The position numbers were made by a program, and so were the translations under genes. The notes beneath the pieces were generated by a model. That model searched no databases. It worked only from the letters and a program-made list of their open reading frames with translations, and was not told the DNA's origin. From positions 1-64,000 of the IMG/VR virus record IMGVR_UViG_2784746744_000001: 64,000 nucleotides of DNA. One strand, given 5' to 3'. Source of the stretch: a virus. Positions within the stretch are counted from its first letter, which is position 1. Each line of letters starts with the position of its first letter. Positions 3,376-63,630 of the stretch are shown here, piece after piece.

Positions 3376-3564
3376 TCAGACGGAGTTCCGCTGGTTTGCG
3401 CGGGCCTTGTCACGGCGCTTGCCGGACGGGCGACCATGGCGCTTAGCCCTGTGGTCAGGCCGGGCCATAGGCTCGGCAGAAGATGCAGCATTGCGGGAAG
3501 GGTAGTAGTCACCTGCCTCGTCATACAGTTCGACGAGGCAAGGTCTTCTGCTTGAAAGTGGCAT
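3376..3564 (-). CDS. hypothetical basic small protein (62 aa)
   Basis: Start is preceded by the phage-typical CACCACCAGAGGAGA leader motif. Lys/Arg-rich C-terminus. Confidence 0.45.
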   Translation of the reverse strand: MPLSSRRPCLVELYDEAGDYYPSRNAASSAEPMARPDHRAKRHGRPSGKRRDKARANQRNSV

Positions 3565-3645
3565 GAGAGCCGTCTCCTCTGGTGGTGTACACCGCATTGG
3601 TGGTGCGGTGAGAGGAGAATGCTTTAATCCAAACGTGGAGTCAAT

Positions 3646-3658
3646 ATCCAAATTGGAT
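3646..3658. promoter_or_regulatory. operator-like palindrome ATCCAAATTGGAT (type A), downstream of repressor 1
   Basis: 11-bp odd palindrome TCCAA-A-TTGGA. Same element is repeated in the divergent promoter region at 4419-4475. Confidence 0.5.
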
Positions 3659-3662
3659 CAAT

Positions 3663-4388
3663 TTAGTATTTTCCTGATAGAACGATTGGATGGACGCTTA
3701 CGACGTCCTCGCGAGCGAATCGTATTTCGCCTTCTGGATTATATTGACGCAGGACCAAGTCGGAACCCGCCCAGCCCACGAACTCCTTCACATAACCGAG
3801 CGGAGGAAGATCCTCTGAGGCTGGCCTTATCTGCACGATGACGTCGTCGCCTCGACGAGATGGCTTGGTGGGATGAACGTACACGGTTTCGCCAGCCTTG
3901 TAGCGAGGCCACATCGACTCGCCGTCAATGTAGACTGCGTAGGCGTTCGGCACGTTTTGCAGTGAGGGTGGGCAGGCGACATAATCGAGAACGTGGCCAT
4001 TGAAGCTATACTCGCCGCCTTCTCCGCCGACGGCCTCGCCCAATACGGGAAGCATCATTTCCAAGCGATTCGTGGGAATGTGCCCCATAATTCGAGCGTC
4101 AGGAGCGCCCGCGCCTGTGGACGTACCGTTGGTTGGAACCCTGCTAGGCACTGCGAAGAATTTTCCGGCAGCGCTCTCCCCACTCGCTTCCTTCATCAGC
4201 TGTCGCATCTCGTCTTCAGCAATGCCTAGGAGGGCAGCCAGTTCACGCCATTTGCGCGGCGACGATGTGTTTCCGCGGAAGATCTCGGAGATGGCTTGAG
4301 GAGTCATTTCCAGCCTGTCTGCGATCTCCACCTGGCTAATATTTAATTCTTTAGCTCGGGCGACGAGCAGGTCAGACAGCTGGGACAC
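3663..4388 (-). CDS. cI/LexA-like phage repressor (HTH_XRE plus S24 peptidase domain)
   Basis: N-terminal HTH (LNISQVEIADRLEMTPQAISEIFRG). C-terminal LexA-like domain with G-E-S-M Ser and K-A-G-E Lys dyad context. Confidence 0.85.
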   Translation of the reverse strand: MSQLSDLLVARAKELNISQVEIADRLEMTPQAISEIFRGNTSSPRKWRELAALLGIAEDEMRQLMKEASGESAAGKFFAVPSRVPTNGTSTGAGAPDARIMGHIPTNRLEMMLPVLGEAVGGEGGEYSFNGHVLDYVACPPSLQNVPNAYAVYIDGESMWPRYKAGETVYVHPTKPSRRGDDVIVQIRPASEDLPPLGYVKEFVGWAGSDLVLRQYNPEGEIRFAREDVVSVHPIVLSGKY

Positions 4389-4418
4389 GTTTTTTTATCT
4401 CCGTTTTTCAACGTCTTA

Positions 4419-4475
4419 CCATTTTGGATATAAAAAAGCAAATCAAGCAATTGACTCCAAATCCAAATTGGATAT
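4419..4475. promoter_or_regulatory. divergent promoter/operator region with one full and two half copies of the TCCAAATTGGA palindrome
   Basis: Full site at 4462-4472. Half-sites TTGGATA at 4424-4430 and TCCAAAT at 4455-4461. Sits immediately upstream of the repressor 1 start. Confidence 0.5.
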
Positions 4476-4779
4476 TGATTGCGCTGTCACCAGATGGCGG
4501 GGGCCTGACGGAGACGAAACAACATGGCGGAAAACACACAATCCTGCACAAGAAGAAGAGCGAAGCTCCACGGTACTGACAGAAGTGGCTTAACGCGGGA
4601 GCGTGGGCCACCAAGAAGAAGCCAACCGGGCATCCCGACCCAAGCGGGATAAGACCCTAAGACGCGGCCAAACAAATTTAGGAGGTTCATTTGATACAGG
4701 AAAATAGCGGCAGAAGAATAGTTGAAAAACAGGGGGGTCGGAGAAGAGCCGACCCGCAGGCCAAGCCACCTTAAAAGCA

Positions 4780-4812
4780 AGCCCGCATGACGCGGGCTTT
4801 TCCTTTTTTTGA
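4780..4812 (+). terminator. rho-independent terminator (GC hairpin plus T-run)
   Basis: aagcccgcatgacgcgggctt followed by ttcctttttttg. Also sits just 3-prime of the minus-strand gene 4847-5635. Confidence 0.55.
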
Positions 4813-4846
4813 GGGCACCAGTTTGGCAATGCAACCCTGCAGTCCG

Positions 4847-5894: not shown

Positions 5895-5903
5895 ACAATC
5901 GGA

Positions 5904-6526: not shown

Positions 6527-6608
6527 ATAATTATAGGGTGCAAACGTAAATTTCAAGTATCCGCAAGCCGACCAAGCTTCGGTGCTTCTTCATCACAAGA
6601 GGAGAGAC

Positions 6609-6917
6609 ATGACAAAAATCACCAGCGATCAGCTGGCGAAAATGCACGACCGTCGCCTGAGAGGCGAAAGCTGTGTCGATATCGCCAGATCCTTCGGTCT
6701 TAACGAGATGACCGTCTACCAGCGTCTTCGCCGCGAGTTCGGCCTTGATGTCTACAAATTCCCTCCGCCTGTTGCTGCCAACGACAACGTGCCAGGCCGA
6801 GTTCGTAAAATGACTGCACACAACGGCGGATGCTCGACACTGAGCGGCAAGATGCCGGTCACTCTGGTTCGTATCCCGACCCTTGACGGTCCGGCGCCGA
6901 CGCAGGTGGCAGCATGA
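6609..6917 (+). CDS. Cro/CII-like HTH regulator (sigma70 region-4-like HTH). Contains AANDN
   Basis: Start MTKIT preceded by AAGAGGAGAGAC. HTH motif CVDIARSFGLNEMTVYQRLR. Confidence 0.55.
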   Translation: MTKITSDQLAKMHDRRLRGESCVDIARSFGLNEMTVYQRLRREFGLDVYKFPPPVAANDNVPGRVRKMTAHNGGCSTLSGKMPVTLVRIPTLDGPAPTQVAA

Positions 6918-7198
6918 GCCAGTGCGATTGCGAGACTTTTGACGCCGGTGACTGGGTCGAATGCCAGCTTGATACCGACCTTTTTGGTATCGTCGTCGGT
7001 GATGCTGATTTCGGTCGCATCGTGAGCGTACAGCTCGCCGGCTCCCTCGAAATCCGTCCATTCTTCGCCGTCACACTGCGCCACGTCGCTCCCAAGGAGC
7101 CGCCGGCTGTCGAGAACGACGACACCAACGTCATCCACGTGGACTTCACCAAGCCGCGTGCGCTGGATGCCAACACCACCACAGAAGGAGCTGCGTAA
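6914..7198 (+). CDS. hypothetical protein
   Basis: 94-aa ORF, ATGA-coupled to the upstream gene. Confidence 0.4.
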   Translation: MSQCDCETFDAGDWVECQLDTDLFGIVVGDADFGRIVSVQLAGSLEIRPFFAVTLRHVAPKEPPAVENDDTNVIHVDFTKPRALDANTTTEGAA

Positions 7199-7199
7199 C

Positions 7200-8399
7200 A
7201 TGGGGAAGTTTGAAAAAGGTCAGTACGTCCGCAGAACCAAGGGCAGTTCGCTGCACACTGCTGCTGGGATCCATGAGGCCGGTTTTGTCGGTCAGGTTTC
7301 TGCAGTCGAGATTTCGACCTGCGGCGCAGAGCTGCTCTTCACGAACGGCCAGCGCGGCATCGCCGACAAGTATGAGCCGTGGGTGCCAAAGGTCGGTGAT
7401 CGGGTGACCACCAATATGACCACACGCGTCAATATCGAGCGGCATTGGAACCATCATTTCCGACGTTCCGAAGGCGATATCATCAATGGTGCACTTGTTG
7501 TGACCAGTGTTTCGGAAAAAAACACCGGCAGCAATATCGGCCTTAGCAACAAGGAAGGCCGCAGCTTCTTCTTCATGCCCGAATCGACACTGCGACCTGC
7601 CGATCCGGCTCCCGCCGCCCTCACCATCGAAGCCGGCAAGTTCTACAAGACGCGCGATGGCCGGAAGGTCGGGCCGATTGTGAAGGCGCAATGGGGCTAC
7701 GGACCAGATTGGCTGTGGTCGGTTGAGCATCCGTTCGTCGCCTCCTGCGGCAAGGCGTGGCGCGCAGATGGCACCTTCTCGACAGTAGCTGGCCGCTCGG
7801 ATGAGGCTGACCTCGTTGCCGAATGGGTCGACGAGCCGGCCAGCAATGACAACGGCGGCATCGCCAGTCTGATTGGCAAGTCCGTCACGGTTCAGATCAC
7901 GAAGCCGAAGTTCGAAGTCGGCGATCGCGTGAATAAAACGGACTGGCAGAGTTACAGCCCGAAGGGATATCTCGTGACACAAATCACGTCGGACAGGCTT
8001 TGGCTGGATCCCGGCAATGGGATGGCGCCGGTCAGCTACAAACTGCCGGATGAGGAATTCTGGTTAGTTACAACGAAGCCTGCCACCACCCCCGCCATCG
8101 TCGCCCTCATCGAAAACGGCCAGCCTAAGCCGTCGTCCACCCCGCACGTCCATGCCGACGAAGCCAAGGCTGGCAAGGAAGCGGCCCGTCTTGCCGGTGT
8201 CTACAAGGGCAAGGAGTTCGGCGTCTTCGTCCTGACCTCGAGTGCCCAGCAGGCCGCGCCGGTCTACAAGCACGAATGGCAGCGCCTGGCTGCCAATGGC
8301 AACAAGATCGGCGCCATCAAGGAACTGCGGGCCGCCAACGACCTGACGCTCAAGGGCGCCAAGGATGCCGTCGAGCACTGGCTCGCAACGGCCGCCTAA
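7200..8399 (+). CDS. hypothetical protein with C-terminal ribosomal L7/L12-CTD-like segment. Contains ASNDN
   Basis: 400 aa. C-terminal KIGAIKELRAANDLTLKGAKDAVE resembles the L7/L12 C-terminal domain motif. Confidence 0.5.
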   Translation: MGKFEKGQYVRRTKGSSLHTAAGIHEAGFVGQVSAVEISTCGAELLFTNGQRGIADKYEPWVPKVGDRVTTNMTTRVNIERHWNHHFRRSEGDIINGALVVTSVSEKNTGSNIGLSNKEGRSFFFMPESTLRPADPAPAALTIEAGKFYKTRDGRKVGPIVKAQWGYGPDWLWSVEHPFVASCGKAWRADGTFSTVAGRSDEADLVAEWVDEPASNDNGGIASLIGKSVTVQITKPKFEVGDRVNKTDWQSYSPKGYLVTQITSDRLWLDPGNGMAPVSYKLPDEEFWLVTTKPATTPAIVALIENGQPKPSSTPHVHADEAKAGKEAARLAGVYKGKEFGVFVLTSSAQQAAPVYKHEWQRLAANGNKIGAIKELRAANDLTLKGAKDAVEHWLATAA

Positions 8400-8463
8400 C
8401 CACTCCACCACCATCACCACAGCACGGCCGTGCGGCTAACCACCGCACGGCGAGAGGAGACCT

Positions 8464-8667
8464 ATGTCCAGACATCGCTCGACGACCAATCCCTACGCGA
8501 CCAGCCTGACCCGAACCGGCAAGCTGGATATGACCAACCGCAAGCCGTACCGTACGGCTGCCCAGCAGGCCGACGCCCGCTCGACGGCTGTGAAGGTGAA
8601 CGGCACTTTCGTGTCGAACGCACCGGTCAGCTACCACCGCTCGCCGAAAAAGCAGGTGGCCGCATGA
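8464..8667 (+). CDS. hypothetical small basic protein
   Basis: 67 aa. Strong leader GAGAGGAGACCT before the ATG. Confidence 0.5.
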   Translation: MSRHRSTTNPYATSLTRTGKLDMTNRKPYRTAAQQADARSTAVKVNGTFVSNAPVSYHRSPKKQVAA

Positions 8668-9082: not shown

Positions 9083-9276
9083 TGGGATCGCCGTTTAGCT
9101 GGATGCCCACCATCATGATTGTCGGCATCTTCGTGCTGTCGATCTGGCTTTTCGGAGGCTGAAATGGCGGCACTCGCAATCATCGGAGGAGGCGTCATCG
9201 CCTTCTTCCTGGCCTTGGGCGTGGCCACCTACTTCGCCCCGAAATCTACCACCACCACAAAGAGGAGACAGAAATA

Positions 9277-10128
9277 ATGGGTCGCATTTTTGCAGGCATC
9301 CTTGGCTTTTTCGTATTCATCGCCGCGTCGAGCGTTGTGTTCGGCAGCTGGTACACGATCGACGAGGGCGAACGCGGTGTCCTAACCCGCAACGGCGCAG
9401 TCGTAGGAACGGCCACACCTGGCCTCGGATTCAAGATGCCGATCATGGACGGTGTCGAGAAGATCACTGTGCGAACGGAGATCATCCAATTCGACAAGCT
9501 CGGCGCCTACAGCCGTGACCAGCAGTCGGCCGAGATGCGGGTGTCGGTGAACTACCGAATCCTGCCGGACGCCGTGAAGGACGTTTACTCGAACTACGGC
9601 TCTGCTGACGGTATCGCTGCCCGCCTTATCCAGCCGCGCATCTTCGAAACCCTGAAGACAGTATTTGGCCAATTCACCGCTGTGTCTGCCATTCAGGAGC
9701 GCGAGAAACTGAACACAATGGTGCGTGACGCCATCGCCAAGTCCGTCGGCGGCCCGATTGTCATCGAAGGTGTCCAGATCGAAAACATCGATTTCTCCGA
9801 TGCCTACGAGGCCAGCATCGAGCAGCGCATGCTTGCCGAGGTCGAGGTGCAGAAGCTCCGCCAGAACGCCGAGCGCGAGAAAGTGCAGGGCGAAATCACG
9901 GTGACGCAGGCCAACGCAAAGGCCGACGCTGTTCGAGCTGCTGCATCAGCTGAGGCTGAAGCCATCCGGATCCGAGGTGAAGCTGAAGCATCCGCCATCA
10001 AGTCTCGCGGCGCGGCCCTCCGTGACAATCCCGGCCTTGTCGACCTGACGGCAGTCGAAAAGTGGAAGGGCGACCTGCCATCCACGATGGTACCGGGCTC
10101 CGCTCTGCCGTTCGTCGGCATCAAGTAA
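9277..10128 (+). CDS. SPFH/band-7 (stomatin/prohibitin/HflK-C-like) membrane protein
   Basis: 283 aa. N-terminal TM helix, SPFH core, C-terminal coiled coil rich in A/E/R. Confidence 0.8.
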   Translation: MGRIFAGILGFFVFIAASSVVFGSWYTIDEGERGVLTRNGAVVGTATPGLGFKMPIMDGVEKITVRTEIIQFDKLGAYSRDQQSAEMRVSVNYRILPDAVKDVYSNYGSADGIAARLIQPRIFETLKTVFGQFTAVSAIQEREKLNTMVRDAIAKSVGGPIVIEGVQIENIDFSDAYEASIEQRMLAEVEVQKLRQNAEREKVQGEITVTQANAKADAVRAAASAEAEAIRIRGEAEASAIKSRGAALRDNPGLVDLTAVEKWKGDLPSTMVPGSALPFVGIK

Positions 10129-10185
10129 CCACCACTGCGGCTGGCCACCACCAGCCGCAACCATTCCCACCACAGAGGAGAAACC

Positions 10186-10959
10186 ATGGCTATTTCCCTT
10201 GGTAGCTTGAACAGCACCAGAAACAATAAGCCTCCGATCGGCGTCATCTATGGCGTCCACGGCGTCGGCAAGACCGCATTGGCGGCCGAGTTTCCCGATC
10301 CGTACTACCTCCCCACCATGGGCGAGGAGCCGCCGGACGACATCGATATGCCGTCGCCGGGCACCGCTGAGAGCCTTGAAGACATCCTCGATGTCATTGG
10401 CTGGCTTCTCACCGAGGAGCACGACCGAAAGACCTTCATCCTCGACAGCGTTGATGGCGCCGAGAGCCTGGTCTGGAAAGCGACTTGCGCGCGCCTTGGC
10501 CTCAACAGCATCGAGGATGCGGGTTTCGGTAAGGGTTATGTCGAGGCGGACACCGAGTGGCGCGAGCTTCTCGCCGGTCTGCAGGCGCTGCGAGACGCAG
10601 GCATCGCCGTCGTGCTCATTGCTCACACTGAGATCACGCGGTTCGACAGCCCGACCAGCGATCCGTTCTCGCGCTACGGCATCAAACTCCACAAGCGCGC
10701 TTCGGCGCTCGTGCAGGAATGCGCCCAGTTCGTCGGCTTCATCAACTACCGCCATACGCTGAAAGAGAAGGAGGTCGGCTTCAACAAGAAGGTCTCGCAC
10801 GCCGAAGGCAGTGGCGAGCGTCAGATCCACCTCGAGGAGCGTCCCGGCTTTCTCGCCAAGTCGCGGTACGGCACGCCGGCAGCCATCACTTTCAAGAAGG
10901 GCAAGGGCTGGGAGGAGCTGGCCAAATACATGCCTGAGCCGCTCGGGAAGGCCGCCTGA
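10186..10959 (+). CDS. Sak4-like AAA_24 RecA-fold ATPase (phage ssDNA annealing/recombination)
   Basis: Walker A GVHGVGKT. Typical Sak4 length of 257 aa. Followed by DUF669. Confidence 0.75.
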   Translation: MAISLGSLNSTRNNKPPIGVIYGVHGVGKTALAAEFPDPYYLPTMGEEPPDDIDMPSPGTAESLEDILDVIGWLLTEEHDRKTFILDSVDGAESLVWKATCARLGLNSIEDAGFGKGYVEADTEWRELLAGLQALRDAGIAVVLIAHTEITRFDSPTSDPFSRYGIKLHKRASALVQECAQFVGFINYRHTLKEKEVGFNKKVSHAEGSGERQIHLEERPGFLAKSRYGTPAAITFKKGKGWEELAKYMPEPLGKAA

Positions 10960-11123
10960 TGTTCAGCGGTGGCAACTGGTTCGCCTGGTTCCCGGTACTT
11001 GTCCGCACATCTCGCGGCAAGCGTTGGGCCTGGCTTGAGAACGTCTGGCGCGAACGCGTCGTCAGCCAACACGGCAGCGGTCCATACCGCTACTACGCCT
11101 AACCACACAGAGGAGATATTGCG

Positions 11124-11339
11124 ATGGCAATTTTCAAGTCGGATTCGCTCGACGGCATCCTGAACACCTTCAACAAAACGATCACGCGCCTCGATGCCTT
11201 CTCGGCTAAGCGCCAGCAGGATGCCGACGCAGCGGCCACCCTCATCAAGCAGAAGCAGGACGAACAGAAGGCAGCTCTCGACGACGTCACCAAGTCGGCC
11301 GCCGTTCGCTCGAAGATCAGTGACCTGATCGCCGCCTAA
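11124..11339 (+). CDS. hypothetical protein
   Basis: 71 aa. Leader ACACAGAGGAGA. Confidence 0.45.
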   Translation: MAIFKSDSLDGILNTFNKTITRLDAFSAKRQQDADAAATLIKQKQDEQKAALDDVTKSAAVRSKISDLIAA

Positions 11340-11375
11340 CCACCGCCTACCAGACACCACACAAGGAGACCACGC

Positions 11376-11963
11376 ATGGCCAAGATTGGCGTAAGAGTTG
11401 AAGCCACCGAAGAGAACACGCAGCAGCGCGATTTCTCGAACCTTCCAAACGGCGACTATCAGCTGGAAATCAGCGCCTCCGAGATCAAGGAGAAGAACGA
11501 GAACACCCGCGACCACAGCATCAACCTCAGCGTGACGATTGACGTCCTCGCGCCGGAGGAGCTCAAAGGCCGCAAGATTTTCTCGAACTACAACCTGCAG
11601 CATCCGAATTCGCAGGTGCAGGAAATCGGACAGCGTCAGTTTGCCTGCCTCCTTCGCTCGCTCGGCATGCAGGACGCGCCGGAGGATTCCGACGAGTTGC
11701 ACTTCATCTCGTTCTTCGCCCGTATCGGCATGGGTAAGGACAGCAAGGAAAAGAACGCCGACGGCTCGCCGAAGTACGCCGCGCGCAACGAGTTGAAGAA
11801 ATACTTCTATCCGGATGAAGGCAACTTGCCGGAGCCGAAGGTGGACGCCGGTCCCGTCGCGGCAAACGACAATCGTCGCGCGCCTGCCGCATCCAACGAC
11901 AATCGTCAGCCGCCGCAGGCCGACGCCAAGCCGGCCGCCCGTCGTCCTTGGGGCAACAAGTAA
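11376..11963 (+). CDS. DUF669-family phage protein (SSB-like partner of Sak4). C-terminal tail has two ANDN motifs
   Basis: N-terminal MAKIGVRVEATEENTQ...NGDYQLEI is typical of DUF669. Confidence 0.6.
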   Translation: MAKIGVRVEATEENTQQRDFSNLPNGDYQLEISASEIKEKNENTRDHSINLSVTIDVLAPEELKGRKIFSNYNLQHPNSQVQEIGQRQFACLLRSLGMQDAPEDSDELHFISFFARIGMGKDSKEKNADGSPKYAARNELKKYFYPDEGNLPEPKVDAGPVAANDNRRAPAASNDNRQPPQADAKPAARRPWGNK

Positions 11964-12065
11964 CCACCGAATAGCGGGTCGCGACCAACGGCCCGCTACC
12001 GACACAGATGACCCGCCGCGCGGCTCACCACCGTGCGGCAATCACCACATCCAGAGGAGACCACC

Positions 12066-13124
12066 ATGCAGCTGAAAACCAGCCGCACCGAGCTCGCGCG
12101 CGTCGTTGGCGCCGTTGGCAAGGTCATCGAATCCAGAACAACCATCCCAATCTTGTCCAATATCCTGCTAGAAGCCGAGGGCGACCGCCTTCGCCTTACC
12201 GGCACGGATCTCGACATCCAAGCGACGGCCAGCGCTGAGGCTACCATCGCCGAACCTGGCCGTGTCACGGTCAGCGCCAAGTTGCTCGGCGATATCGTCC
12301 GTAAGGCCGGCGCTGATGACATTTCGCTCGATCTGAAGGATGGTCGTCTGACCGTCAAGTCGGGACGATCGCGCTTTACGCTCGAAACTTTGCCGGCATC
12401 GGACTATCCGGATCTCGCGGTCGGCACGTACTCTGCCGAATTCGAGATCGACCTCGCTGCGCTGTTCGCACCTGTGTCGTTCGCGATCTCGACAGAGGAG
12501 ACCCGCTATTACCTGAACGGTGCGTTCTTCCACAGTGAGGAGGGCGCGCGCTCAGTAGCCGTGGCAACTGACGGGCATCGCCTCGCGCGCAACCGCGGCC
12601 CCGAACTGCCCGCTTTCGCCGGGATCATTGTTCCTCGAAAAACAGTCGGCTTGCTGCCGAAGGGTTCGGCTAAGGTATCGGTCTCAGACACGAAGATCCG
12701 CATCGAATCGGCAGGATTCTTGATGGTCTCGAAACTGATCGACGGCACGTTCCCCGACTATCGCCGCGTCATCCCTCAGAACAACGACAAGACCATCGTG
12801 GTGGATCGTGATGAAATGATGCGGGCATCTGACCGCGTCGTCACTGTCAGCAGCGAGCGTGGCCGAGCTGTAAAGCTTAGCGTTGCGCCAGGTTCGATCG
12901 CTCTTGCCGCACGCTCTGACGCAGGCGCCGCAGAGGACGAGGTAGCAGCTGAATATAGCGGCGAGCCTTTCGTCATCGGCTTCAACAGCCAGTACGTTCG
13001 TGACCTGTTCAATGTGCTGCCCGCCGGACCAGTCACAATCAACGCTGCCGACGGCGGCTCACCTGCGATCATCACCGGTGGGCTTGATGGCTGGGACGGC
13101 GTCTTGATGCCCATGCGCGTCTGA
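12066..13124 (+). CDS. dnaN: DNA polymerase III beta sliding clamp (DnaN-like), phage-encoded
   Basis: 352 aa. Three-domain clamp signature (MQLKTSRTEL...ILSNILLEAEG...LRLTGTDLD). Leader CAGAGGAGACCACC. Confidence 0.85.
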   Translation: MQLKTSRTELARVVGAVGKVIESRTTIPILSNILLEAEGDRLRLTGTDLDIQATASAEATIAEPGRVTVSAKLLGDIVRKAGADDISLDLKDGRLTVKSGRSRFTLETLPASDYPDLAVGTYSAEFEIDLAALFAPVSFAISTEETRYYLNGAFFHSEEGARSVAVATDGHRLARNRGPELPAFAGIIVPRKTVGLLPKGSAKVSVSDTKIRIESAGFLMVSKLIDGTFPDYRRVIPQNNDKTIVVDRDEMMRASDRVVTVSSERGRAVKLSVAPGSIALAARSDAGAAEDEVAAEYSGEPFVIGFNSQYVRDLFNVLPAGPVTINAADGGSPAIITGGLDGWDGVLMPMRV

Positions 13125-13438: not shown

Positions 13439-14351
13439 ATCCAGCACAGTTCGCGCCATATACGCCGCCTATGAGGCTGCCGCGAGCTCGTGGGACAGCC
13501 TCGGCATTTCGGTTGGCGAGGCAAACGCACCTTGCGATCGACAGCTTTGGTATGCGTTTCGCTGGGCATCGCCGCTGGAAAAGCACCACGGCCGCCAGCT
13601 GCGCCTTTTCGCCACTGGTAACATCGAGGAAGACAGGCTCGTGGCCGACCTCGAAGCGATCGGCGTGGACGTCTATGGCCAGCAGGATCGGATTCGTCTG
13701 GTTGGAAGCCATGTCCGTGGCAAGTGCGACGGCAAGGCCATGGGGATAGTCGAAGCGCCGAAGACCGAGCACTTGCTGGAGTTCAAGTCGAGCAACACGA
13801 AGGGCATGAAGCTAATCGTAAAGGAAGGCTGCGAGAAAGCGAAACCGCTCCACTACGGCCAGTGTCAGCTGGGTATGCACGCTTTCGGCCTGTCACGATG
13901 CCTGTATCTCGTCAGCTGCAAGGATGACGATACGCTCTATGCCGAGCGCCTAGTCTACGATCCAGAGTTTTGCATGCGGCTGCTGGCACGCCTTGAGCGG
14001 ATCATCAACGCGCCTGAGCCGCCGTCACGCATCAGCGAAGACCCAGAGTGGTTCGAATGCTTGTTTTGCAAGCACAAGCCAGTCTGCAAGCAGTCGGCGT
14101 GGCCACGCGTGACCTGCCGATCATGTATCCACTCGACGCCTGAGATGGGCGGCGATGGCCACTGGTCATGCGCTCGGTGGGCAAAGCCGATCTCGTTCGA
14201 TGAACAAAAAGAGGGATGCCCTACGCACCTCACCATTCCAGCCTTAGTGCCGGGAGAGCAGATCGACGTCGACGAAGAGGCCGAGACCATCACCTATCGC
14301 CTTACCAACGGCGATCTTTGGACTGACGGCGCCACCAACGCCGCAGCCTGA
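13416..14351 (+). CDS. PD-(D/E)xK nuclease, Cas4/RecB-like with C-terminal Cys cluster (TTG start inferred)
   Basis: D...EFK motif (GIVEAPKTEHLLEFKSS). C-terminal CKHKPVC...C...C cluster. GGAGGAGA 5 nt before the TTG. Confidence 0.6.
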   Translation: MAPLPKSESSTVRAIYAAYEAAASSWDSLGISVGEANAPCDRQLWYAFRWASPLEKHHGRQLRLFATGNIEEDRLVADLEAIGVDVYGQQDRIRLVGSHVRGKCDGKAMGIVEAPKTEHLLEFKSSNTKGMKLIVKEGCEKAKPLHYGQCQLGMHAFGLSRCLYLVSCKDDDTLYAERLVYDPEFCMRLLARLERIINAPEPPSRISEDPEWFECLFCKHKPVCKQSAWPRVTCRSCIHSTPEMGGDGHWSCARWAKPISFDEQKEGCPTHLTIPALVPGEQIDVDEEAETITYRLTNGDLWTDGATNAAA

Positions 14352-14373
14352 CACCACCACAGAGGAGACCACC

Positions 14374-14931
14374 ATGACCCCGGCGAACGATAACCGCCCT
14401 ACACCAAAAAGGCCGGCCGGCTTCGACGCCGCGCTCGAATCCTACCTGCCTTCGCTCCGGAAGCAGGCAAACTATATGGCCGGCACACGTGAGGACGGCG
14501 AAGTCCTCCTGCATGAGACCGTCCTGCGGATGCTCCGCTGCGCCGATAACTGCCGCGTGGAGACGTTCAAAACCTGGGCGCAGTACAAGCTGCTCAACAC
14601 CCACAGTGGCATGAGGGCGGCAGCCCGCAGCCAGTGCCGGTTCGCGCCGACGACGTCACTTACTCCTGCCAACGATAACGACCCGGACGAATTCGCTCGC
14701 ACGATCTCCCAGATGCGGACGGCTGCGACGCAGGAAGCGGATGCTGACTTTGCGGATGCGCTCCGGGTTCTCGGCACCATCAAGGACGGTGACTTGCTTC
14801 TCCGTCGCGCGATGGGTTTTGAGCTCAAGGTCATCGGCGACGAGCTCGGCGTGAGCAAGGAGCGCGTCCGCCAGCGTGAAGAGGCCGCAAGAACGGCGTT
14901 CTGCGCAGCGATGCAGCGGAGTGTCGCCTGA
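14374..14931 (+). CDS. ECF-type sigma-70 family sigma factor (regions 2 and 4). Two ANDN motifs
   Basis: Region 2-like LLHETVLRMLR. Region 4 HTH LKVIGDELGVSKERVRQ. Confidence 0.65.
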   Translation: MTPANDNRPTPKRPAGFDAALESYLPSLRKQANYMAGTREDGEVLLHETVLRMLRCADNCRVETFKTWAQYKLLNTHSGMRAAARSQCRFAPTTSLTPANDNDPDEFARTISQMRTAATQEADADFADALRVLGTIKDGDLLLRRAMGFELKVIGDELGVSKERVRQREEAARTAFCAAMQRSVA

Positions 14932-18797: not shown

Positions 18798-18859
18798 AAT
18801 AAGCATGATGCAATAACCATGCGCCGACCAAGCGCGACACCACGCCACAAGAGGAGACG

Positions 18860-19411
18860 ATGATGAAGGATGCCCATAGCCTTCAGTACCTGAAAGAATG
18901 CTTGAGATACAATCCAGAGACAGGCGCGCTCCACTGGCGAGAAGATCGTCCCAAACATCACTTCGACTTATCAAGAACACGCAATCGGTGGATTGGGCGT
19001 TTTGGTGGAAAGCAGATCACCTGCGTCGCGGAAAGCGGCTACATCGTGTTCAACTTGCGTGGCGTTGTCTACCTCGCTCATCGCGTAATCTTTGCGATGG
19101 AGAACAACATCGAGATGGCAGAACTGCCTGAGCAGATCGACCACAAAGACACGGTTCGCACCAACAACCGCCGAAGCAATTTGCGAGCGGCAGACGTTGT
19201 TAAAAACGCGCATAACATGTCCGTTCGTCGTGATAGCGCCTCCGGATACAAGGGCGTCACATGGGGCAAGCAGCGTCAAAAATGGCGAGCCACGATCCAG
19301 ATCGATGGAAAACAGAAGCATCTCGGATTCTATGAGGATCCGGCAGAAGCTCATGCCGCCTACATCAAGGCAGCAAATGAGAATTTCGGTCAGTTCGCGA
19401 GGGCAGCATGA
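18860..19411 (+). CDS. HNH homing endonuclease with AP2 DNA-binding domain
   Basis: HNH_3 motif YLAHRV...IDHKD...N. AP2 domain SGYKGVTWGKQRQKWRATIQ...FYEDPAEAHAAY. Confidence 0.7.
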   Translation: MMKDAHSLQYLKECLRYNPETGALHWREDRPKHHFDLSRTRNRWIGRFGGKQITCVAESGYIVFNLRGVVYLAHRVIFAMENNIEMAELPEQIDHKDTVRTNNRRSNLRAADVVKNAHNMSVRRDSASGYKGVTWGKQRQKWRATIQIDGKQKHLGFYEDPAEAHAAYIKAANENFGQFARAA

Positions 19412-20357: not shown

Positions 20358-20436
20358 CATCGTGGCCTCCCGACCCAGCAATACGACACCACCCAACGCT
20401 CAACCAACGCGCTGGTTTCACCACAGAGGAGAGAAT

Positions 20437-21989: not shown

Positions 21990-22327
21990 CCTTTCATCCC
22001 ACCATGGTCGGCGGCGCGCCTGCTGTCTGCAACTGCTGCGGCCGCGCTGCCACGGGCGTCGGCATCGGCGATGCGAAGGAGCCACGATTCCTTTGTCAGG
22101 AGTGCGTGCTTATCCTCGAACAGATCAAGCGTGTTCGCAGGTTCGATCCTTACGAGCTTGAGGCACGCCTTGGCGGCATGGAAGCCGCTGGGCCGCTGGT
22201 CGATGAGTTCGGCAGTGACCTTGCTGAATGGAGCGAGGAGCAGGTGCTCATTTTCTGCGGCGCGATCTGGAAGGGCTGCGCTGACAAGTTGAGGGAAGTT
22301 ATCCGCGCCGGCCAACCACCATTCTAA
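21986..22327 (+). CDS. hypothetical zinc-ribbon protein (CxxC...CxxC)
   Basis: 113 aa. CNCCGRA...CQEC motifs. Confidence 0.4.
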   Translation: MTFHPTMVGGAPAVCNCCGRAATGVGIGDAKEPRFLCQECVLILEQIKRVRRFDPYELEARLGGMEAAGPLVDEFGSDLAEWSEEQVLIFCGAIWKGCADKLREVIRAGQPPF

Positions 22328-22384
22328 CCGACGACGCCACCAACGTCTCGGCACCACAACACACCACATCCAGAGGAGACTACC

Positions 22385-29968: not shown

Positions 29969-30011
29969 TGATGGCGTTTGCGCACAGTTAACCACCACAG
30001 GAGGACACCAC

Positions 30012-31156: not shown

Positions 31157-31550
31157 TTCGGTGTCCTTTTTGAATGTGAACTTGTGACGGATCACAATGC
31201 CTCATGGCCCCGTGAGTTCCATGCGCTGTCATCGAAATCAGCCTGCCATGTCGAGCCGCATGGCGGACCATGGCGGCACCCATGAGCATCCTAGTCCTCT
31301 GTGTCTTTGATTGTGCCGGATACATGCCGTCACCATTGCGGGCATATGCCTAACGTCACGAATTAACGTGAGGGCGCTGCTGACGAGTAGTGGCTGGATG
31401 CACCCATACGGCCATTCACCGATAGATGCTTGCGGCTTGGACGCGGCATTCGGTTGGCCTCCTTAATCCCCACGTCGACCTCTCCTCCGTCGTGTGGTGA
31501 TCCCTGCGGCTGGCTCGCTTCGGCTTGAGCCGGCCGCTTTCGGTTTTTTC

Positions 31551-48976: not shown

Positions 48977-49021
48977 GCCGCCACCACCAGCAAAACTGAC
49001 ACCACATCAGAGGAGGCCGCA

Positions 49022-50482
49022 TTGGCTGACCTATCGTATTTCCATGGCGTGCAGGTGCTCGAAAGCCCTGACAGCCCGTCGCTTCTGCGCGTCACCAACT
49101 ACGGCATTTCGTTCGTCAATGGCACCGCACCGGGCGCTGACGCTGCGACATTCCCGCTGAACAAGCCGACGCTGATCACGAACCTGTCGCAGGCCGCGCT
49201 GCTCGGCACGCAGGGCACGCTTTACAACGACGTGGTCACCATCTTTGGTGAGGGCGGATCGATTGTCATCGTCAACCGTGTTGAGCACAGCGAAACTGCC
49301 GCAACTCTGCAGGCAAACCTGATCGGTGACGCCGGCCAGCGCACCGGCCTCTACTCGGCACTGCGCGCCAAGGCACTTCTTGGCTATCAGCCGCGCGTGA
49401 TCGTCACCGCCGGCAACACAGGCACGTGGATCGAGGGCGGCCTTCTGTCCGTCGCCATTTCTGGCTCTGGCAGCCTGCTGACCGAGGCGCCGACGGTTGC
49501 CTTCACCGGTGGCGGTTCTGATGCCGGCAAGGTTTTGCCGACCGCTGTTGCGGTGCTCGGTACCGGCGTAAATGCCGGCAAGGTCGTGTCCGTTACGGTT
49601 ACCAGCGCGGGCAAGGGCATGACACAGGCTCCCGTTGTTGCCTTCACCGGTGGCGGCTCTGAGTCTGGCAAGGTGCTCCCGACCGCGACCGCAAACATCG
49701 GCGACGTCGGCAACCCCTTCGTTTCGGCACTTGCGACCATCACGGAGCAGGTTAAGGCTCGTGCCTACATCGCCGGCCCGAACACGACCAACGCCGATGC
49801 CGTGCGCTTCCGCGCTACCATTAACAGCGGTCGTATCCTTCCCATTGACCCGGCTGGCATCAAGAACGTCGATGGCGTGCCTGTTATCGTGCCGATTGCG
49901 CCGGTCTTCGCGGGCATTCGTTCGCGTGTTGTCGGTTCGGCTGAGGGCGTTTCCGGCTCGGTATCGAACAAGGAAATCCGCACGCTGGACGGCGTCGCAC
50001 GCACGATCGCTTATCCGACCGACAGCAACTACCTGAACGACAAGCAGGTCGCGACGGTCATCAATGAGAATGGCCTACGCACTTGGGGCTCGCGCCTCGC
50101 GACATCGGATGCCCTCTGGCAGTTCGATAGCGTCCGCGCCACCGCCGACATGATCAACGAGAGCCTCGAGCAGATCTACTTCAAGTGGGTCGACAAGAAG
50201 TTCACGAAGGCCAACCTGAAGATGATGATCGAGGACGGCAATGCCGCACTGCGCGTCTTCAAGAAGAACGACGACATCCTCGGCGGCAAGGTCTGGCTCT
50301 CCGATATCAACCAGCCCACGGTCAATGCCAACGGCCAGGTCTATCTGAATGTTGAGTTCGAGCCCGTCGGCCTGATGGAGCAGATCAAAATCACCACGCA
50401 TCGCAACATCCTCTACTACCAGATCCTTCTGGATGAGGTTCGTGGCGCGATCGACAACGGCCCGCTCACGCTGGCCGCGTAA
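49022..50482 (+). CDS. contractile tail sheath protein (TTG start)
   Basis: 486 aa. P2 FI-like. Leader CAGAGGAGG. Confidence 0.85.
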   Translation: MADLSYFHGVQVLESPDSPSLLRVTNYGISFVNGTAPGADAATFPLNKPTLITNLSQAALLGTQGTLYNDVVTIFGEGGSIVIVNRVEHSETAATLQANLIGDAGQRTGLYSALRAKALLGYQPRVIVTAGNTGTWIEGGLLSVAISGSGSLLTEAPTVAFTGGGSDAGKVLPTAVAVLGTGVNAGKVVSVTVTSAGKGMTQAPVVAFTGGGSESGKVLPTATANIGDVGNPFVSALATITEQVKARAYIAGPNTTNADAVRFRATINSGRILPIDPAGIKNVDGVPVIVPIAPVFAGIRSRVVGSAEGVSGSVSNKEIRTLDGVARTIAYPTDSNYLNDKQVATVINENGLRTWGSRLATSDALWQFDSVRATADMINESLEQIYFKWVDKKFTKANLKMMIEDGNAALRVFKKNDDILGGKVWLSDINQPTVNANGQVYLNVEFEPVGLMEQIKITTHRNILYYQILLDEVRGAIDNGPLTLAA

Positions 50483-51004: not shown

Positions 51005-51084
51005 GCCACCCACCATCACCAGCATAGCTAGAAGGGCCGCCTCACCAGCGGCCTTTCGCTTTTCAACACCACTGAGGAGTCCTC

Positions 51085-51342
51085 ATGACCACCATTAAGC
51101 TTTCCACGCCCGTCGAACATTCCGGCGTCACCTATTCCGAAATCTCTTTCGATGAACCGACGGTCGGCGATCTCGCCGCTGCGGATCTCGTGAAGGGCGA
51201 AACGCACCAGATGCTCGCCGTCCTTTCCAGCATGTCAGGCGTGCCGATCCCGGCGCTCAAGAAGATCAAGGCCAAGGAGTTCGCCAAGTTCTCGAAGGCG
51301 ATTGATCTGGGAAACGAGCCGGAGCCCACGACTGGCGAATAG
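51085..51342 (+). CDS. tail assembly chaperone gpE-like. A -1 frameshift at G_GGA_AAC (51309-51315) would extend it to 51467 (E-prime)
   Basis: 85 aa. Canonical slippery heptamer in the zero frame. The -1 frame stays open until the TGA overlapping the tape-measure start. Confidence 0.55.
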   Translation: MTTIKLSTPVEHSGVTYSEISFDEPTVGDLAAADLVKGETHQMLAVLSSMSGVPIPALKKIKAKEFAKFSKAIDLGNEPEPTTGE

Positions 51343-61415: not shown

Positions 61416-62080
61416 GCGTTTACCTCAACGTCAAAACTCTCAGCTGCGCGAACACGCATGAGCTCTAGAAACCAGCGGGGCCGACCAATGCCGGGAACGG
61501 GTAGGGGTTCAGAAGGAAGGGGTGACACCCGCCATCTCGTCATCGAGGCGGTCGGGCTTCCGAAGTCTGTGGCTTCTTGCTGGCGCCGCCACCGACGAAT
61601 GATAAGCCCGGTTGCTCCAGACTGCTCTGCGGCGAGTTGGAAGCGTCGGCTGGCGACCATCGGCAGGCGCACCAGTTCAGCGACAACAACTGCTACGCCG
61701 CGATACCGCAGGCCTTCCTCGGCGCATTCAATCACGCCTTCTTCATCTTTGGATTCGACGAAAATCACGCGGTCCATGCTGAGGCCGACCTGCACCAAGG
61801 ATGGCGCGAAAAGATCGGTGCGAGTTAGACACCATATCACCGGGCCGGGTATCCGCGCTGCTATCCCTGCCGTAAACAGCGCCGACACTGCCCCGCACAC
61901 TACATCGGTTCCGCCGCCCGCAATCTCGTGCGTCGCTCCGAGCGCCAATCCGCCGCCAGGCAACCGGCTATCAATTTCGGGCACTCCGAAAGGGACCGTT
62001 TGGCGCTGACGCACAGCTCCGCCGGCGATCTGGTCGATGCGCTCCTGTAGATCTGCGATGACGGTGCGATTAATTCTCAT
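61349..62080 (-). CDS. imuA: ImuA-like SOS mutagenesis protein (RecA/SulA-fold)
   Basis: N-terminal ...IDSRLPGGGLALGATHEIAGGG... matches the ImuA consensus. SOS box directly upstream. Confidence 0.7.
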   Translation of the reverse strand: MRINRTVIADLQERIDQIAGGAVRQRQTVPFGVPEIDSRLPGGGLALGATHEIAGGGTDVVCGAVSALFTAGIAARIPGPVIWCLTRTDLFAPSLVQVGLSMDRVIFVESKDEEGVIECAEEGLRYRGVAVVVAELVRLPMVASRRFQLAAEQSGATGLIIRRWRRQQEATDFGSPTASMTRWRVSPLPSEPLPVPGIGRPRWFLELMRVRAAESFDVEVNACNATGHMTSIEEQEDPWRVAL

Positions 62081-62099
62081 GATCTCACAATAGGCTTTT

Positions 62100-62114
62100 G
62101 TTCCTATTATGTTC
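62100..62114. promoter_or_regulatory. alphaproteobacterial LexA (SOS) box GTTC-N7-GTTC
   Basis: GTTCCTATTATGTTC about 20 nt upstream of the imuA-like start codon. Confidence 0.65.
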
Positions 62115-62237
62115 TCATTGATAGTGGAGTCAACGGCCTGTTCGCGGTGACCGCGTAGCCAACTGAAACTGCTAATTTATATGTTCAGAATGGGCTGTGG
62201 TTACGCAGTGGATAAACCATTTTTGCCAAGGCTGGCT

Positions 62238-62609
62238 TTAAACGCACAAAGCCCCGCGCATGTCGGTACGCGGGGCAATGGCGCGGCCAGCTGACGCATC
62301 GTCAAGATCAACCGGCGCGATTTCAAAACCGTGATCACCGAAATACGTTCCGAGATTATTTAACTTTTGCTTCAGGCGATTCACCGTCTCTAAGATTTGC
62401 CTGAGTTCCTCGTCTGTGCCCATGCCGAGTGCCAAATTTTCTGCGACCTCGACAACAGCTGCCAGGGTTTCGGCCTCTGTCCAGCCGGCTTTCATCGCGT
62501 CGGCAATAAGCTCCTGCAACTGCCCTTCGATCGCCTCCTCACATTCGATGAAGCGGTCGGAAGAATTCGCGCGGGGTTTATCCATGCCGCCCAACGAACT
62601 CAACCGCAA
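62238..62609 (-). CDS. hypothetical acidic protein
   Basis: 123-aa ORF. Divergent from the protease gene across the operator. Confidence 0.4.
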   Translation of the reverse strand: MRLSSLGGMDKPRANSSDRFIECEEAIEGQLQELIADAMKAGWTEAETLAAVVEVAENLALGMGTDEELRQILETVNRLKQKLNNLGTYFGDHGFEIAPVDLDDASAGRAIAPRTDMRGALCV

Positions 62610-62634
62610 GCAGTTCCCCTCAGTATCACAAATC

Positions 62635-62650
62635 TTGACAAATTTGTAAA
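62635..62650. promoter_or_regulatory. third copy of TTGACAAATTTGTAAA (type B operator/promoter)
   Basis: Exact 16-mer repeat. Confidence 0.5.
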
Positions 62651-62710
62651 TCTATTGTAGTGGTAGTTCATGGCCTCACCAGCCAAATTCACCACACAGA
62701 GGAGGCCGTC

Positions 62711-63367
62711 ATGACCAGATTCAGACGCATTGCGTTCGCATCCGTCGCTGTATTACTCAGCGGTATCGCCTACTTTGCCGCCCCTACAGTAGCGGCCTAC
62801 ACCGAAAAGTTCACTGCCGCGCCGGTTACAGCCGCCGCGACGGTCAAAGTCGTCACAAAGACCGGCCACGGTTCGGGTGTGCACATCGGCACAGGATTTG
62901 TTCTGACTGCTGCGCACGTCGCCCGCGACGTGAAGTCGGTGCAATTGGTGACGAAGGACGGTCAGTCACGCCAAGCCGACGTCCTGTGGATCAACGATGA
63001 ATACGACATTGCGCTGCTGCGCACGTCGCCCGCGACGTTGCCTGCCGCTCACCTGGACTGCGGTCGTATGGATGTCGGGGCGGTCATCGAGGCCATGGGC
63101 AATCCTCTGGTCGTCGATTTTGTCTCGGCCTACGGCAAGATTGCCGGCGACCCTCGGAAGCAGGGTCCTTGGAAGTCGGTCTACGTCACAGACATCACGA
63201 CCGTGAAGGGTATGAGCGGTGGCCCGGTATTCTCGTCATCTGGCGATGTCGTCGGCATCACCGTCGGTCTGCTGTCTGACGCTACAGGGCTGATCCCGAT
63301 CGGCGTGCGATTTGGCTTCGTCGTGCCGTCGTCCGATGTTTGCGCGCTGTTGGGGCGGGTGTCTTGA
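62711..63367 (+). CDS. trypsin-like S1 serine protease, secreted
   Basis: His motif LTAAHV. Ser motif GMSGGPV. Signal peptide. Leader CACACAGAGGAGG. Confidence 0.7.
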   Translation: MTRFRRIAFASVAVLLSGIAYFAAPTVAAYTEKFTAAPVTAAATVKVVTKTGHGSGVHIGTGFVLTAAHVARDVKSVQLVTKDGQSRQADVLWINDEYDIALLRTSPATLPAAHLDCGRMDVGAVIEAMGNPLVVDFVSAYGKIAGDPRKQGPWKSVYVTDITTVKGMSGGPVFSSSGDVVGITVGLLSDATGLIPIGVRFGFVVPSSDVCALLGRVS

Positions 63368-63630
63368 GGGCGCTTTTCGGGGTTCGCCTTCATGCTGGCG
63401 AGCCGGAATTGCCCACCAAACTTCGAGCTTACACAGGCAGTTTGCTATCCAAAAACGCAGGTGGCGAAGCACTCAACAACTACACCGATCATGCGCTGGC
63501 TCGCTGGTACGGGGTGTCGTTCAAACTCAGGTGGTTTGCCGGCCTTTGGATATTCGGGAGCACCACCTACCCATCTGAGCGCGGACCACTTCCGCGATAA
63601 CCACCACACCATCACAAAGAGGAGACTTCC

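Follow-up and report, generated by a model that had tools for sequence, protein, structure and literature searches.

A loop-specific hairpin, an ACCA-rich tract and a uniform Shine-Dalgarno sequence form a start-associated cassette, a putative translation-initiation element, in a family of Rhizobium-type temperate phages

Here we report that a sequence repeated just upstream of start codons in a 64,000-nucleotide (nt) stretch of viral DNA (positions 1 to 64,000 of the IMG/VR record IMGVR_UViG_2784746744_000001, hereafter the window) is one part of a three-part cassette composed of a GC hairpin, a G/T-depleted tract of ACCA units, and a Shine-Dalgarno (SD) sequence. The window is almost entirely occupied by a temperate phage, a Rhizobium-type prophage, and the cassette recurs in most of the 77 related viral loci retrieved with the AAA_24 protein, as well as in the cultured Rhizobium phage RHph_X2_25, with hundreds of genes carrying it in the relatives. 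In the interpretation that we favour, at a probability of about 0.5, the family has its own translation-initiation cassette, of which the motif is the visible core, for genes that are unable to rely on translational coupling, mainly those of the early/replication module.

A first-pass annotation of the window had listed 17 gene starts with the motif, and at all of them it is indeed found immediately 5' of the start codon. Two additional sites, at 7200 on the plus strand and 2996 on the minus strand, bring the total to 19, including four looser variants at 6609 (CATCACAAGAGGAGAG), 30012 (AACCACCACAGGAGGAC), 49022 (with a TTG start), and 51085 (CACCACTGAGGAGT). The observation is real and lies far above chance: CACCACAGAGGAGA with up to 2 mismatches has 7 matches in the window versus 0.48 expected, and the pattern ACCAC-N0-8-GAGGAG has 16 versus 0.21, a number reached in 0 of 100 dinucleotide-preserving shuffles. 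Among these 16 matches, one (18679-18689) is at no gene start and another (31482-31498, minus strand) lies antisense to a candidate small RNA (sRNA) described below. A scan of viral contigs with CACCACAGAGGAGA as an exact pattern was uninformative, returning mostly single matches. The annotation had also described the preceding stop as very often TAA followed by CCACC; the arrangement exists, but at 6 of 32 TAA and 2 of 35 TGA stops, or 8 of the 79 stops of the gene map and an estimated one third or so of the cassette sites, 'very often' was an overstatement.

The SD of the cassette is (A)GAGGAG(A). Over 439 distinct GAGGAG+ATG sites of the family, the 12-14 nt upstream of the SD are approximately 80-90% A+C, with 3-15% G and 6-13% T, and ACA is the consensus directly before the SD, at positions -4 to -2. 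Relative to the tract's own composition, the tetramers ACCA, CCAC, and CACC are enriched 4.25-, 2.85-, and 2.4-fold, respectively, whereas CCCC (0.04-fold) and ACCC/CCCA (0.3-fold) are depleted. The CCAC/CACC units reported earlier are real, and are better described as ACCA units within a G/T-free tract. This tract may precede or follow the hairpin, and its spacing varies, a sequence pattern consistent with tolerance of position relative to the SD; across the relatives, leaders and hairpins co-occur, and the most distant relatives have neither.

Motif orientation agrees with the gene strand at every site, including the two minus-strand genes. Fifteen cassette sites are in non-structural regions, the site at 30012 is between the replication and packaging modules, and those at 49022 and 51085 belong to the tail module. 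Between 6.6 and 24.4 kb, the cassette precedes 9 of the 10 plus-strand genes with a preceding gap of at least 20 nt (6609 being counted as a variant), the lone exception being a doubtful 37-aa call at 9164, and the genes at 7200 and 9277 have it despite gaps of at most 1 nt. Overlapping genes are devoid of the cassette, and so are most late genes, the sheath and tail-chaperone genes excepted; the same early/late and gapped/overlapping split in cassette use is seen in RHph_X2_25. Overlapping starts use a different conserved junction, (G)AGGTGGCRGC-ATGA, found at 6900-6917, 8650-8667, 8889-8906, and 21745-21762 and many times in the related locus L226, which gives many of the proteins encoded upstream a -VAA or -AA C-terminus. 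At 8655, the GGUGG of this junction is predicted to pair with a CCACC located 17 nt upstream, as expected for classical translational coupling. We considered whether CCACC leaders might in general pair over long range with the GGUGG at coupled starts further downstream, and rejected this, as the 8655 SD pairs locally and the other predictions are weak.

Part of the cassettes are connected to a near-palindromic operator, TTGACAAATTTGTAAA, whose four copies overlap -35 boxes (5880-5895, 6511-6526, 18782-18797, and 62635-62650). Three copies are exact (6511, 18782, and 62635), and each of these is followed within approximately 20-40 nt by a hairpin and a cassette. Divergent repressor-like genes on the minus strand (5904-6500 and 62238-62609) lie near these operators and are separate from the S24 repressor gene (3663-4388, minus strand). 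The exact operator/promoter copy at 62635 bears out the earlier proposal that phage-type genes continue at 62.7 and 63.6 kb. Continuation to the right is further supported by the contig that extends the window (L253), which holds another perfect cassette at ~6150-6202.

For comparison with host genes, we used five 50-kb segments from pSymB, p42f, pRL12, and pAtC58 with approximately 205 genes, called in the same way as in the window. ACCAC at positions -30 to -1 precedes 0-3% of these host-like genes versus 22% of the genes in the window, AGAGGAG is found upstream of 0% versus 18%, the combined pattern ACCAC-N0-8-GAGGAG occurs once in the 250 kb of Rhizobiaceae plasmids and chromids, and the sequence upstream of host-like GGAG sites has no base bias. 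Within the plasmid and chromid sample, the cassette is not the general host SD context; the first-pass annotation would have given up phage specificity had the same motif been equally common before host genes, and in this sample it is nearly absent, so that it looks like a phage-owned translation signal. An origin of the cassette in ordinary host SD context, or in the composition of a genome with 59% G+C, could draw on the canonical SD core and on the low information per position in the tract. We nevertheless regard it as highly improbable, given the rarity in sampled host genes, the excess over dinucleotide-preserving shuffles, the enrichment of ACCA even against the tract's own composition, and the late and overlapping genes of the same phage that do without the cassette.

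The GC hairpins reported for the intergenic spacers are present within a few bases of where they had been placed (8427-8451, 10136-10159, and 11972-11998), but they are not the incidental GC hairpins they were taken for, since no part of the module is more sequence-specific than their 7-nt loop. The stems vary from site to site while the loop is conserved in two classes, C-N-ACCA-A (CCACCAA, CUACCAA, and CGACCAA) and C-U-N-ACCA (CUCACCA and CUAACCA). The window has 9 plus-strand hairpins with CNACCAA or CNNACCA loops and stems of at least 4 bp, and one more before a minus-strand gene, versus 3 in 500 kb of host-like strands; in the relatives, the counts are 109 for the gene strand and 14 for the other. 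Among the top loops of an unbiased tally, CCACCAA was the sole 7-mer, and it is flanked by a stem in 43 of its 208 occurrences (21%), compared with at most 4% for each other of the 35 C4A3 permutations. When sites were anchored on the loop alone, without requiring pairing, 69 of 299 loop occurrences upstream of an SD and start had stems of 4-10 bp comprising all pair types, with GC, CG, AT, and TA at every position of the arms. In dnaN orthologues, the upstream stems are wholly different between relatives and the loop is identical. The distance from the 3' end of the stem to the SD is mostly 9-22 nt (mode 11-17), with a few cases up to 46 nt and 2-3 nt in one lineage, and approximately a third of the cassettes are hairpin-free. 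A conserved loop on free stems is sequence-specific and implies a reader. In a phyletic profile of 14 early proteins, none followed the hairpin and leader counts.

Several simpler roles of the hairpin were discarded. It is not an intrinsic terminator, since at least 5 T in the next 9 nt were found at 0 of 69 family hairpins; the sole hairpin in the window with a T-rich tail is 51031-51057. Nor does it appear to be a passive insulator of the SD, whose predicted accessibility is unchanged when the 5' arm is shuffled or the hairpin deleted (0.546, 0.549, and 0.544). A promoter for the phage sigma factor was dismissed on account of the loop-SD distance, which ranges from 2 to 46 nt, and because a start site would fall inside the SD.

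The tract and the SD together are probably a strong, structure-proof initiation site for uncoupled genes, as judged from folding models and by analogy. The mean unpaired probability predicted for positions -20 to +3 is 0.58 for cassette genes versus 0.40-0.44 for other genes of the window and 0.43 for host-like genes (Mann-Whitney p ~1e-4). The SD would pair over 6-7 bases with the 3' end of 16S rRNA, which we take to read ...CCUCCUUUCU in alphaproteobacteria. The G/T-poor ACCA tract, with ACA beside the SD, would keep the ribosome-binding site single-stranded and could act as a landing (standby) site for the 30S subunit, probably via protein S1. The hairpin would be positioned near the 5' edge of the 30S footprint and offer an extra ACCA in its loop; because the loop displays the same unit as the tract, our best guess is that both are read by the same factor, either the 30S platform/S1 or a dedicated protein. 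At the three operator-controlled promoters, the hairpin may additionally cap the 5' end of the mRNA. The sequences establish the anatomy, the statistics, the conservation through the family, the absence from sampled Rhizobiaceae plasmid and chromid genes, and the predicted openness; enhancement of translation, the reader's identity, and any role in RNA stability are inferred. The translational enhancer suggested in the first-pass annotation is thus consistent with the predicted openness and the ACA/ACCA content, and with published C/A-rich enhancers and standby tails (PMC3879156, PMC5934652). In Salmonella, C/A-rich and ACA elements beside the SD enhance translation without strict positioning, with S1 as the suspected reader (PMC3879156). 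CA-repeat tails work as standby sites (PMC5934652). Like the cassette, the enterobacterial enhancers of gltI, yifK, and dppA have a G-poor C/A tract directly upstream of the SD, with ACA beside it and no strict position (PMC3879156, PMC5934652). They differ in belonging to individual host genes, whereas the cassette is uniform and phage-wide, in having ACA or CA rather than ACCA as the unit, and in that no upstream hairpin repeating the unit in its loop is on record for them. They can be silenced by a complementary small RNA, GcvB, as the cassette may be by the candidate sRNA described below.

Several considerations weigh against this initiation model. Enhancement of translation is deduced from sequence and predicted folding, and the tract has a low information content of 0.3-0.6 bits per position, so selection against structure may be part of its signal. 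To our knowledge, recognition of ACCA by S1 or the 30S subunit is undocumented, least of all in Rhizobiaceae. The host background was drawn from plasmids and chromids of four other Rhizobiaceae rather than from the true host's chromosome or highly expressed genes. The major capsid gene (37601), a highly expressed late gene, has no cassette, which would be odd for a pure strength element. Finally, the unchanged predicted accessibility of the SD after shuffling or deletion of the hairpin leaves the hairpin and the conservation of its loop unexplained by the model.

The sRNA-binding site proposed as another option in the first-pass annotation has gained a concrete candidate in a conserved phage sRNA with a CUCCUC loop, inferred from sequence and folding to lie on the plus strand at 31405..31549. 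This candidate trans partner has three hairpins; the second has a 9-nt loop, CUCUCCUCC, complementary to the cassette SD GAGGAGA, and a 3' stem strand, GUGUGGUG, complementary to CACCACAC. The plus strand is predicted to fold with z = -4.08 and to end in a UUCG-capped terminator with a U-run. The window, L227, and the Endobacterium cereale prophage share a nearly invariant block of approximately 140 nt between diverging flanks, and all substitutions in the block are in predicted loops or linkers. A minus-strand ORF (open reading frame) of 36 codons at 31363-31473 is unlikely to be a gene, considering that the substitutions among the three homologues are all nonsynonymous and that its C-terminal part is unconserved. 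At 14 syntenic loci, per-sequence folding gave the same shape of anti-SD hairpin plus terminator with different stems and with CUCCUC always unpaired (copies besides that of the window at L120 ~7890-8020, L227 ~5270-5398, L228-L232, L236-L238, and L240-L242), and a further copy is in RHph_X2_25 (L252 ~4730-4815). The locus lies between the early region and the packaging genes, usually beside tRNA genes. MAFFT/RNAalifold analysis of the hairpin gave weak covariation (3 of 8 pairs), because the MAFFT alignment is not structural, and per-sequence folding was used instead. An exact scan with the sRNA core recovered a single true homologue, and no Rfam family matched 31405-31549 even at E-values up to 10.

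These data allow the cassette to be read as the shared target of a phage anti-SD sRNA, either 31405-31549 or, in other subfamilies, an ar14-type sRNA, whose CUCCUC would pair with GAGGAG for a joint switch-off, for example as the end of the early transcript accumulates; in this phage, GUGUGGUG would also pair with CACCACAC. Such a switch is compatible with the enhancer model and not exclusive of it, and we hold it as a tentative possibility, the better placed of the alternatives. Besides the near-invariance of the block, its stable fold and terminator, and the syntenic copies, with a further one in the cultured RHph_X2_25, at least 7 contiguous bases complementary to the sRNA loop are present in 60% of cassette start regions versus 5% of other window genes and 5% of host-like genes. 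That match is partly trivial, however, because any strong SD complements an anti-SD loop; the GUGUGGUG extension is limited to the window-type sRNA (3 loci), where it is part of the stem, and is unconserved in other versions; the site was located by searching for the reverse complement of the motif; its minus strand reads as a further cassette followed by GTG and the 36-codon ORF; and host mRNAs are equally possible targets. A precedent is provided by GcvB, which silences C/A-rich enhancers in the same way (PMC3879156), and bona fide ar14/cuckoo genes (RF02344, 73-83 bits) are present on the minus strand in the early regions of six relatives (L158 15854-15976, L176 16644-16767, L179 17020-17144, L183 14145-14263, L184 17367-17487, and L201 17578-17700); the paper on the cuckoo family makes no mention of phages (PMC4615179). 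The window sRNA resembles ar14/cuckoo sRNAs (RF02344; PMC4615179) in the C-rich anti-SD motif in a hairpin loop, the Rho-independent terminator, and the Rhizobiales setting, with true ar14 copies in related phages. It differs in having one anti-SD loop, CUCUCCUCC, where ar14/cuckoo sRNAs have 2-4 CCUCCUCCC loops, and in its fixed synteny beside the phage tRNA-fMet and packaging genes.

Other explanations concern the hairpin itself, which could be a boxB-like site whose loop is read on nascent RNA by an arginine-rich phage protein, for N-type antitermination or for control of translation or stability. A variable stem with a conserved loop is the signature of boxB-type sites, and the boxB of phi21, in which the loop rather than the stem is likewise conserved, has a hexaloop, CUAACC, to which the N peptide binds (PMC12550061, PDB 1NYB), close to our class-2 loops CUAACCA and CUCACCA, which can be written as CU(A/C/U)ACC plus A. 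As in lambdoid phages, there are promoter-proximal copies, here at the extreme 5' end of three operator-controlled transcripts, and the genes immediately downstream encode small orphan proteins that are very basic (8464-8667, with R+K 12 and D+E 2, and 8664-8906, with the C-terminus TRGERKRALRERT); only in the 8464 lineage does the hairpin abut the SD, a spacing that can be read as expected for autoregulation. The hairpins nevertheless depart from lambdoid nut sites in several respects. No boxA, searched as a YGCTCTTTAA-like element, is near them, the window having one match with 1 mismatch (28665) versus 4.6 expected by chance, and no recognisable N protein accompanies them, the basic candidates having no Pfam or PHROG match and a presence that does not track that of the hairpin across relatives. 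There are at least 10 hairpins per genome, most of them between cistrons, instead of one per operon; each of them goes with a ribosome-binding site; canonical terminators show no enrichment (20 versus 19.4 expected in 5.5-25.4 kb); and the commonest loop, CCACCAA, does not have the U of the phi21-type turn. We therefore consider boxB-like function unlikely. We are equally doubtful that the hairpins are RNA-end stabilisers or processing landmarks, either 5' caps or 3' barriers of the upstream cistron, with the CA tract being incidental. A stabilising role of the promoter-proximal hairpins is plausible, since at the 6511, 18782, and 62635 promoters they lie in the first ~20-40 nt of the predicted transcript; other hairpins do lie between cistrons, and the 8427-type hairpin is kept with its upstream gene while the downstream gene changes among relatives. 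Stabilisation, however, requires a stem and not a fixed 7-nt loop, a T-run follows 0 of 69 family hairpins, and approximately a third of the cassettes have no hairpin to be stabilised by. Moreover, RNase III would be expected to need longer stems than these (4-10 bp), and RNase E to prefer an AU-rich single strand, which the tract is not. We continue to favour the initiation cassette over these readings.

The individual sites in the window illustrate the flexibility of the cassette. On the minus strand, a hairpin-free cassette, TAACCACCACCGACCAACCACCACCAGAAGGAGACCATC-ATG, precedes a 90-aa gene (2994..3036), and the hairpin CACCGCA.CCACCAA.TGCGGTG (3590-3610) is followed by TACACCACCAGAGGAGA and the ATG at 3564 (3562..3610). 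All other sites are on the plus strand. The promoter-proximal variant at 6567..6611, downstream of the operator/promoter 6511-6526, has a hairpin (6567-6583) that can be drawn as GCCGA.CCAAGCT.TCGGT or AAGC.CGACCAA.GCTT, followed by CATCACAAGAGGAGAGAC-ATG, and the tract at 7170..7202, CCAACACCACCACAGAAGGAGC-N8-ATG, is within the 3' end of the upstream ORF. At 8396..8466 the order is reversed, with the TAACCACTCCACCACCATCACCACAGCAC tract first and the hairpin GCCGTGCGG.CTAACCA.CCGCACGGC (8427-8451) touching GAGAGGAGACCT-ATG. The SPFH/Band 7 gene has a cassette without hairpin, CTACCACCACCACAAAGAGGAGA-N8-ATG (9246..9279), and the AAA_24 gene has TAACCACCAC, the hairpin TGCGGCTGG.CCACCA.CCAGCCGCA (10136-10159), and ACCATTCCCACCACAGAGGAGAAACC-ATG (10126..10188). 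A short cassette, TAACCACACAGAGGAGATATTGCG-ATG, is at 11100..11126, and TAACCACCGCCTACCAGACACCACACAAGGAGACCACGC-ATG (11337..11378) serves the DUF669 gene. Two tandem hairpins, TAGCGGGTCG.CGACCAA.CGGCCCGCTA (11972-11998) and GCCGCGCGG.CTCACCA.CCGTGCGGC (12015-12039), precede AATCACCACATCCAGAGGAGACCACC-ATG of the sliding-clamp gene dnaN (11972..12068), and the phage sigma-factor gene has CGGCG.CCACCAA.CGCCG (14327-14343) and then CAGCCTGACACCACCACAGAGGAGACCACC-ATG (14327..14376). At the promoter-proximal site of the HNH gene (18820..18862), the hairpin TGCGC.CGACCAA.GCGCG (18820-18836) corresponds to approximately +3 to +19 of the transcript predicted from the 18782 promoter and is followed by ACACCACGCCACAAGAGGAGACG-ATG. 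The N6/N4 methylase gene has CACCACCCAACGCTCAACCAACGCGCTGGTTTCACCACAGAGGAGAGAAT-ATG with a weak hairpin only (20387..20439), and the C5 methylase gene has GACG.CCACCAA.CGTC (22333-22347, where a bulge permits extension) and GGCACCACAACACACCACATCCAGAGGAGACTACC-ATG (22317..22387). A short variant, TTAACCACCACAGGAGGACACCAC-ATG, is found before the PHROG 36072 gene (29988..30014). In the late region, the tail sheath gene has GCCGCCACCACCAGCAAAACTGACACCACATCAGAGGAGGCCGCA-TTG (48977..49024), and the tail assembly chaperone gene has the tract GCCACCCACCATCACCAGC, the hairpin GAAGGGCCGC.CTCACCA.GCGGCCTTTC (51031-51057), and CAACACCACTGAGGAGTCCTC-ATG (51005..51087). Downstream of the operator/promoter 62635-62650, the trypsin-like peptidase gene at 62711 has the promoter-proximal hairpin TGGC.CTCACCA.GCCA (62671-62685) and AATTCACCACACAGAGGAGGCCGTC-ATG (62671..62713), and the last site combines CGCGGA.CCACT.TCCGCG (63580-63596), with an atypical 5-nt loop, and ATAACCACCACACCATCACAAAGAGGAGACTTCC-ATG (63580..63633).

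The phage genome begins at the left end of the window with minus-strand genes for the integrase (1-1113) and the S24/HTH repressor. The rightward early/replication module spans 6.6 to 27 kb and encodes SPFH, AAA_24, and DUF669 proteins, the DnaN clamp, a Cas4-type exonuclease, the sigma factor, a helicase, two methylases, and a primase-polymerase; it is followed by two tRNA genes and by late genes for terminase, portal, capsid, tail sheath, tail assembly chaperone, and tape measure. The nearest genome is the prophage of Endobacterium cereale (Rhizobiaceae), with a terminase identity of 94-97%, whereas RHph_X2_25, whose host is Sinorhizobium americanum, combines the same early module with a structural module unlike that of the window. 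Both tRNAs are on the plus strand, an initiator-type tRNA-Met with a C1xA72 mismatch (31551-31627) and a tRNA-Trp (31636-31707). The anticodon stem of the tRNA-Met has only two G-C pairs plus A29-U41, a variant also found in L236 and L237, and by eye the tRNA-Met appears closely similar to E. coli tRNA-fMet.

A number of further observations were made along the way. The annotated HNH endonuclease of RHph_X2_25 (L252 4528-5139; MW960032.1 48527-49138) crosses the sRNA and its terminator with its first 100 codons; the annotation appears to start approximately 300 nt early, a start at ATGGCCGACCACCGC fitting the HNH domain. The 10-mer CTGCGGCTGG is found both in the stem of the 10136 hairpin (10135-10145) and at the beginning of the sRNA terminator (31503-31512). 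It presumably matches alphaproteobacterial 16S rRNA close to the 3' end, in the stretch immediately preceding GGATCACCTCC, an occurrence that by rough estimate is at about chance level in 64 kb. The 399-aa early protein encoded at 7200-8399 (plus strand) has 30 C-terminal residues (NKIGAIKELRAANDLTLKGAKDAVE) similar to the C-terminal domain of L7/L12 (Pfam 21.7 bits, under the cut-off; PDB E = 0.06), and its homologue in RHph_X2_25 is likewise annotated as L7/L12-type; the stretch presumably corresponds to helices 4-5, which we take to be the factor-binding part of L12. The 8427-8451 hairpin is conserved nearly base for base in orthologues from L145-L148, L197, and L200, with the closing pair swapped from G-C to C-G, and the gene 3' of it differs in each relative. 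This changing downstream gene puts cassettes at mosaic junctions, where they may serve as exchange points. At the right end, L253 (4358-11626) prolongs the window by approximately 7.3 kb, over which the operon from the 62635 promoter goes on with about ten small genes and genes for a dGTP_diPhyd_N and a SIR2_2 protein, a defence-like cargo; the end of the contig resembles a tRNA T-arm and is possibly an attachment site.

No account of the cassette turned up in the literature that could be searched. Of the systems already described, it is most like the SAS/ESAS repeats of Cluster K mycobacteriophages, which have no known function (2011, PMC3203893; 2025 survey, PMC12699233). Both are short, asymmetric, SD-containing repeats located a few bases upstream of the starts of 10-20 genes per genome, in one orientation only and concentrated in the non-structural half; the SAS/ESAS repeats are likewise conserved across a phage cluster, with about half of the copies preceded by an inverted repeat. 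The cassette is not, however, a member of the SAS/ESAS family, because its sequence differs and its pattern of conservation is reversed. It does not match the 13-bp SAS consensus GGGATAGGAGCCC (with up to 2 mismatches), the cassette being (ACCA)n-ACA-GAGGAGA with only the GGAG core in common, and its upstream part is a loose ACCA-rich tract where SAS is a fixed 13-mer. In ESAS, imperfect 17-bp arms are conserved around a variable spacer, whereas the cassette hairpin has free arms and a conserved 7-nt loop, a pattern suggesting that the loop is read as RNA. The host phyla of the two groups of phages are also unrelated.

Start-associated phage repeats have been known since 2011 through SAS/ESAS, and their mechanism was never found. 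The cassette is an independent alphaproteobacterial case with a clearer anatomy, comprising a loop-specific hairpin, an ACCA tract, and a uniform SD. With hundreds of natural variants, the cultured phage RHph_X2_25, and a candidate partner RNA, it makes the role of start-associated repeats directly testable. It also flags gene starts and mosaic junctions, and can thereby improve the annotation of Rhizobiaceae prophages, and it may be of use in rhizobial engineering as a source of strong, portable ribosome-binding sites. A more far-reaching view, which we put forward as an outside chance, is that this phage family has its own initiation regulon, with a cassette whose ACCA units in tract and loop have a dedicated reader, an sRNA that arises at the end of the early transcript and titrates GAGGAG sites through its CUCCUC loop so as to shut the early set off, and an adjacent initiator tRNA. 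In that event, the hairpin would define a new kind of RNA recognition element, read through its loop, and for the first time a start-associated repeat of phages would have a defined partner acting in trans.

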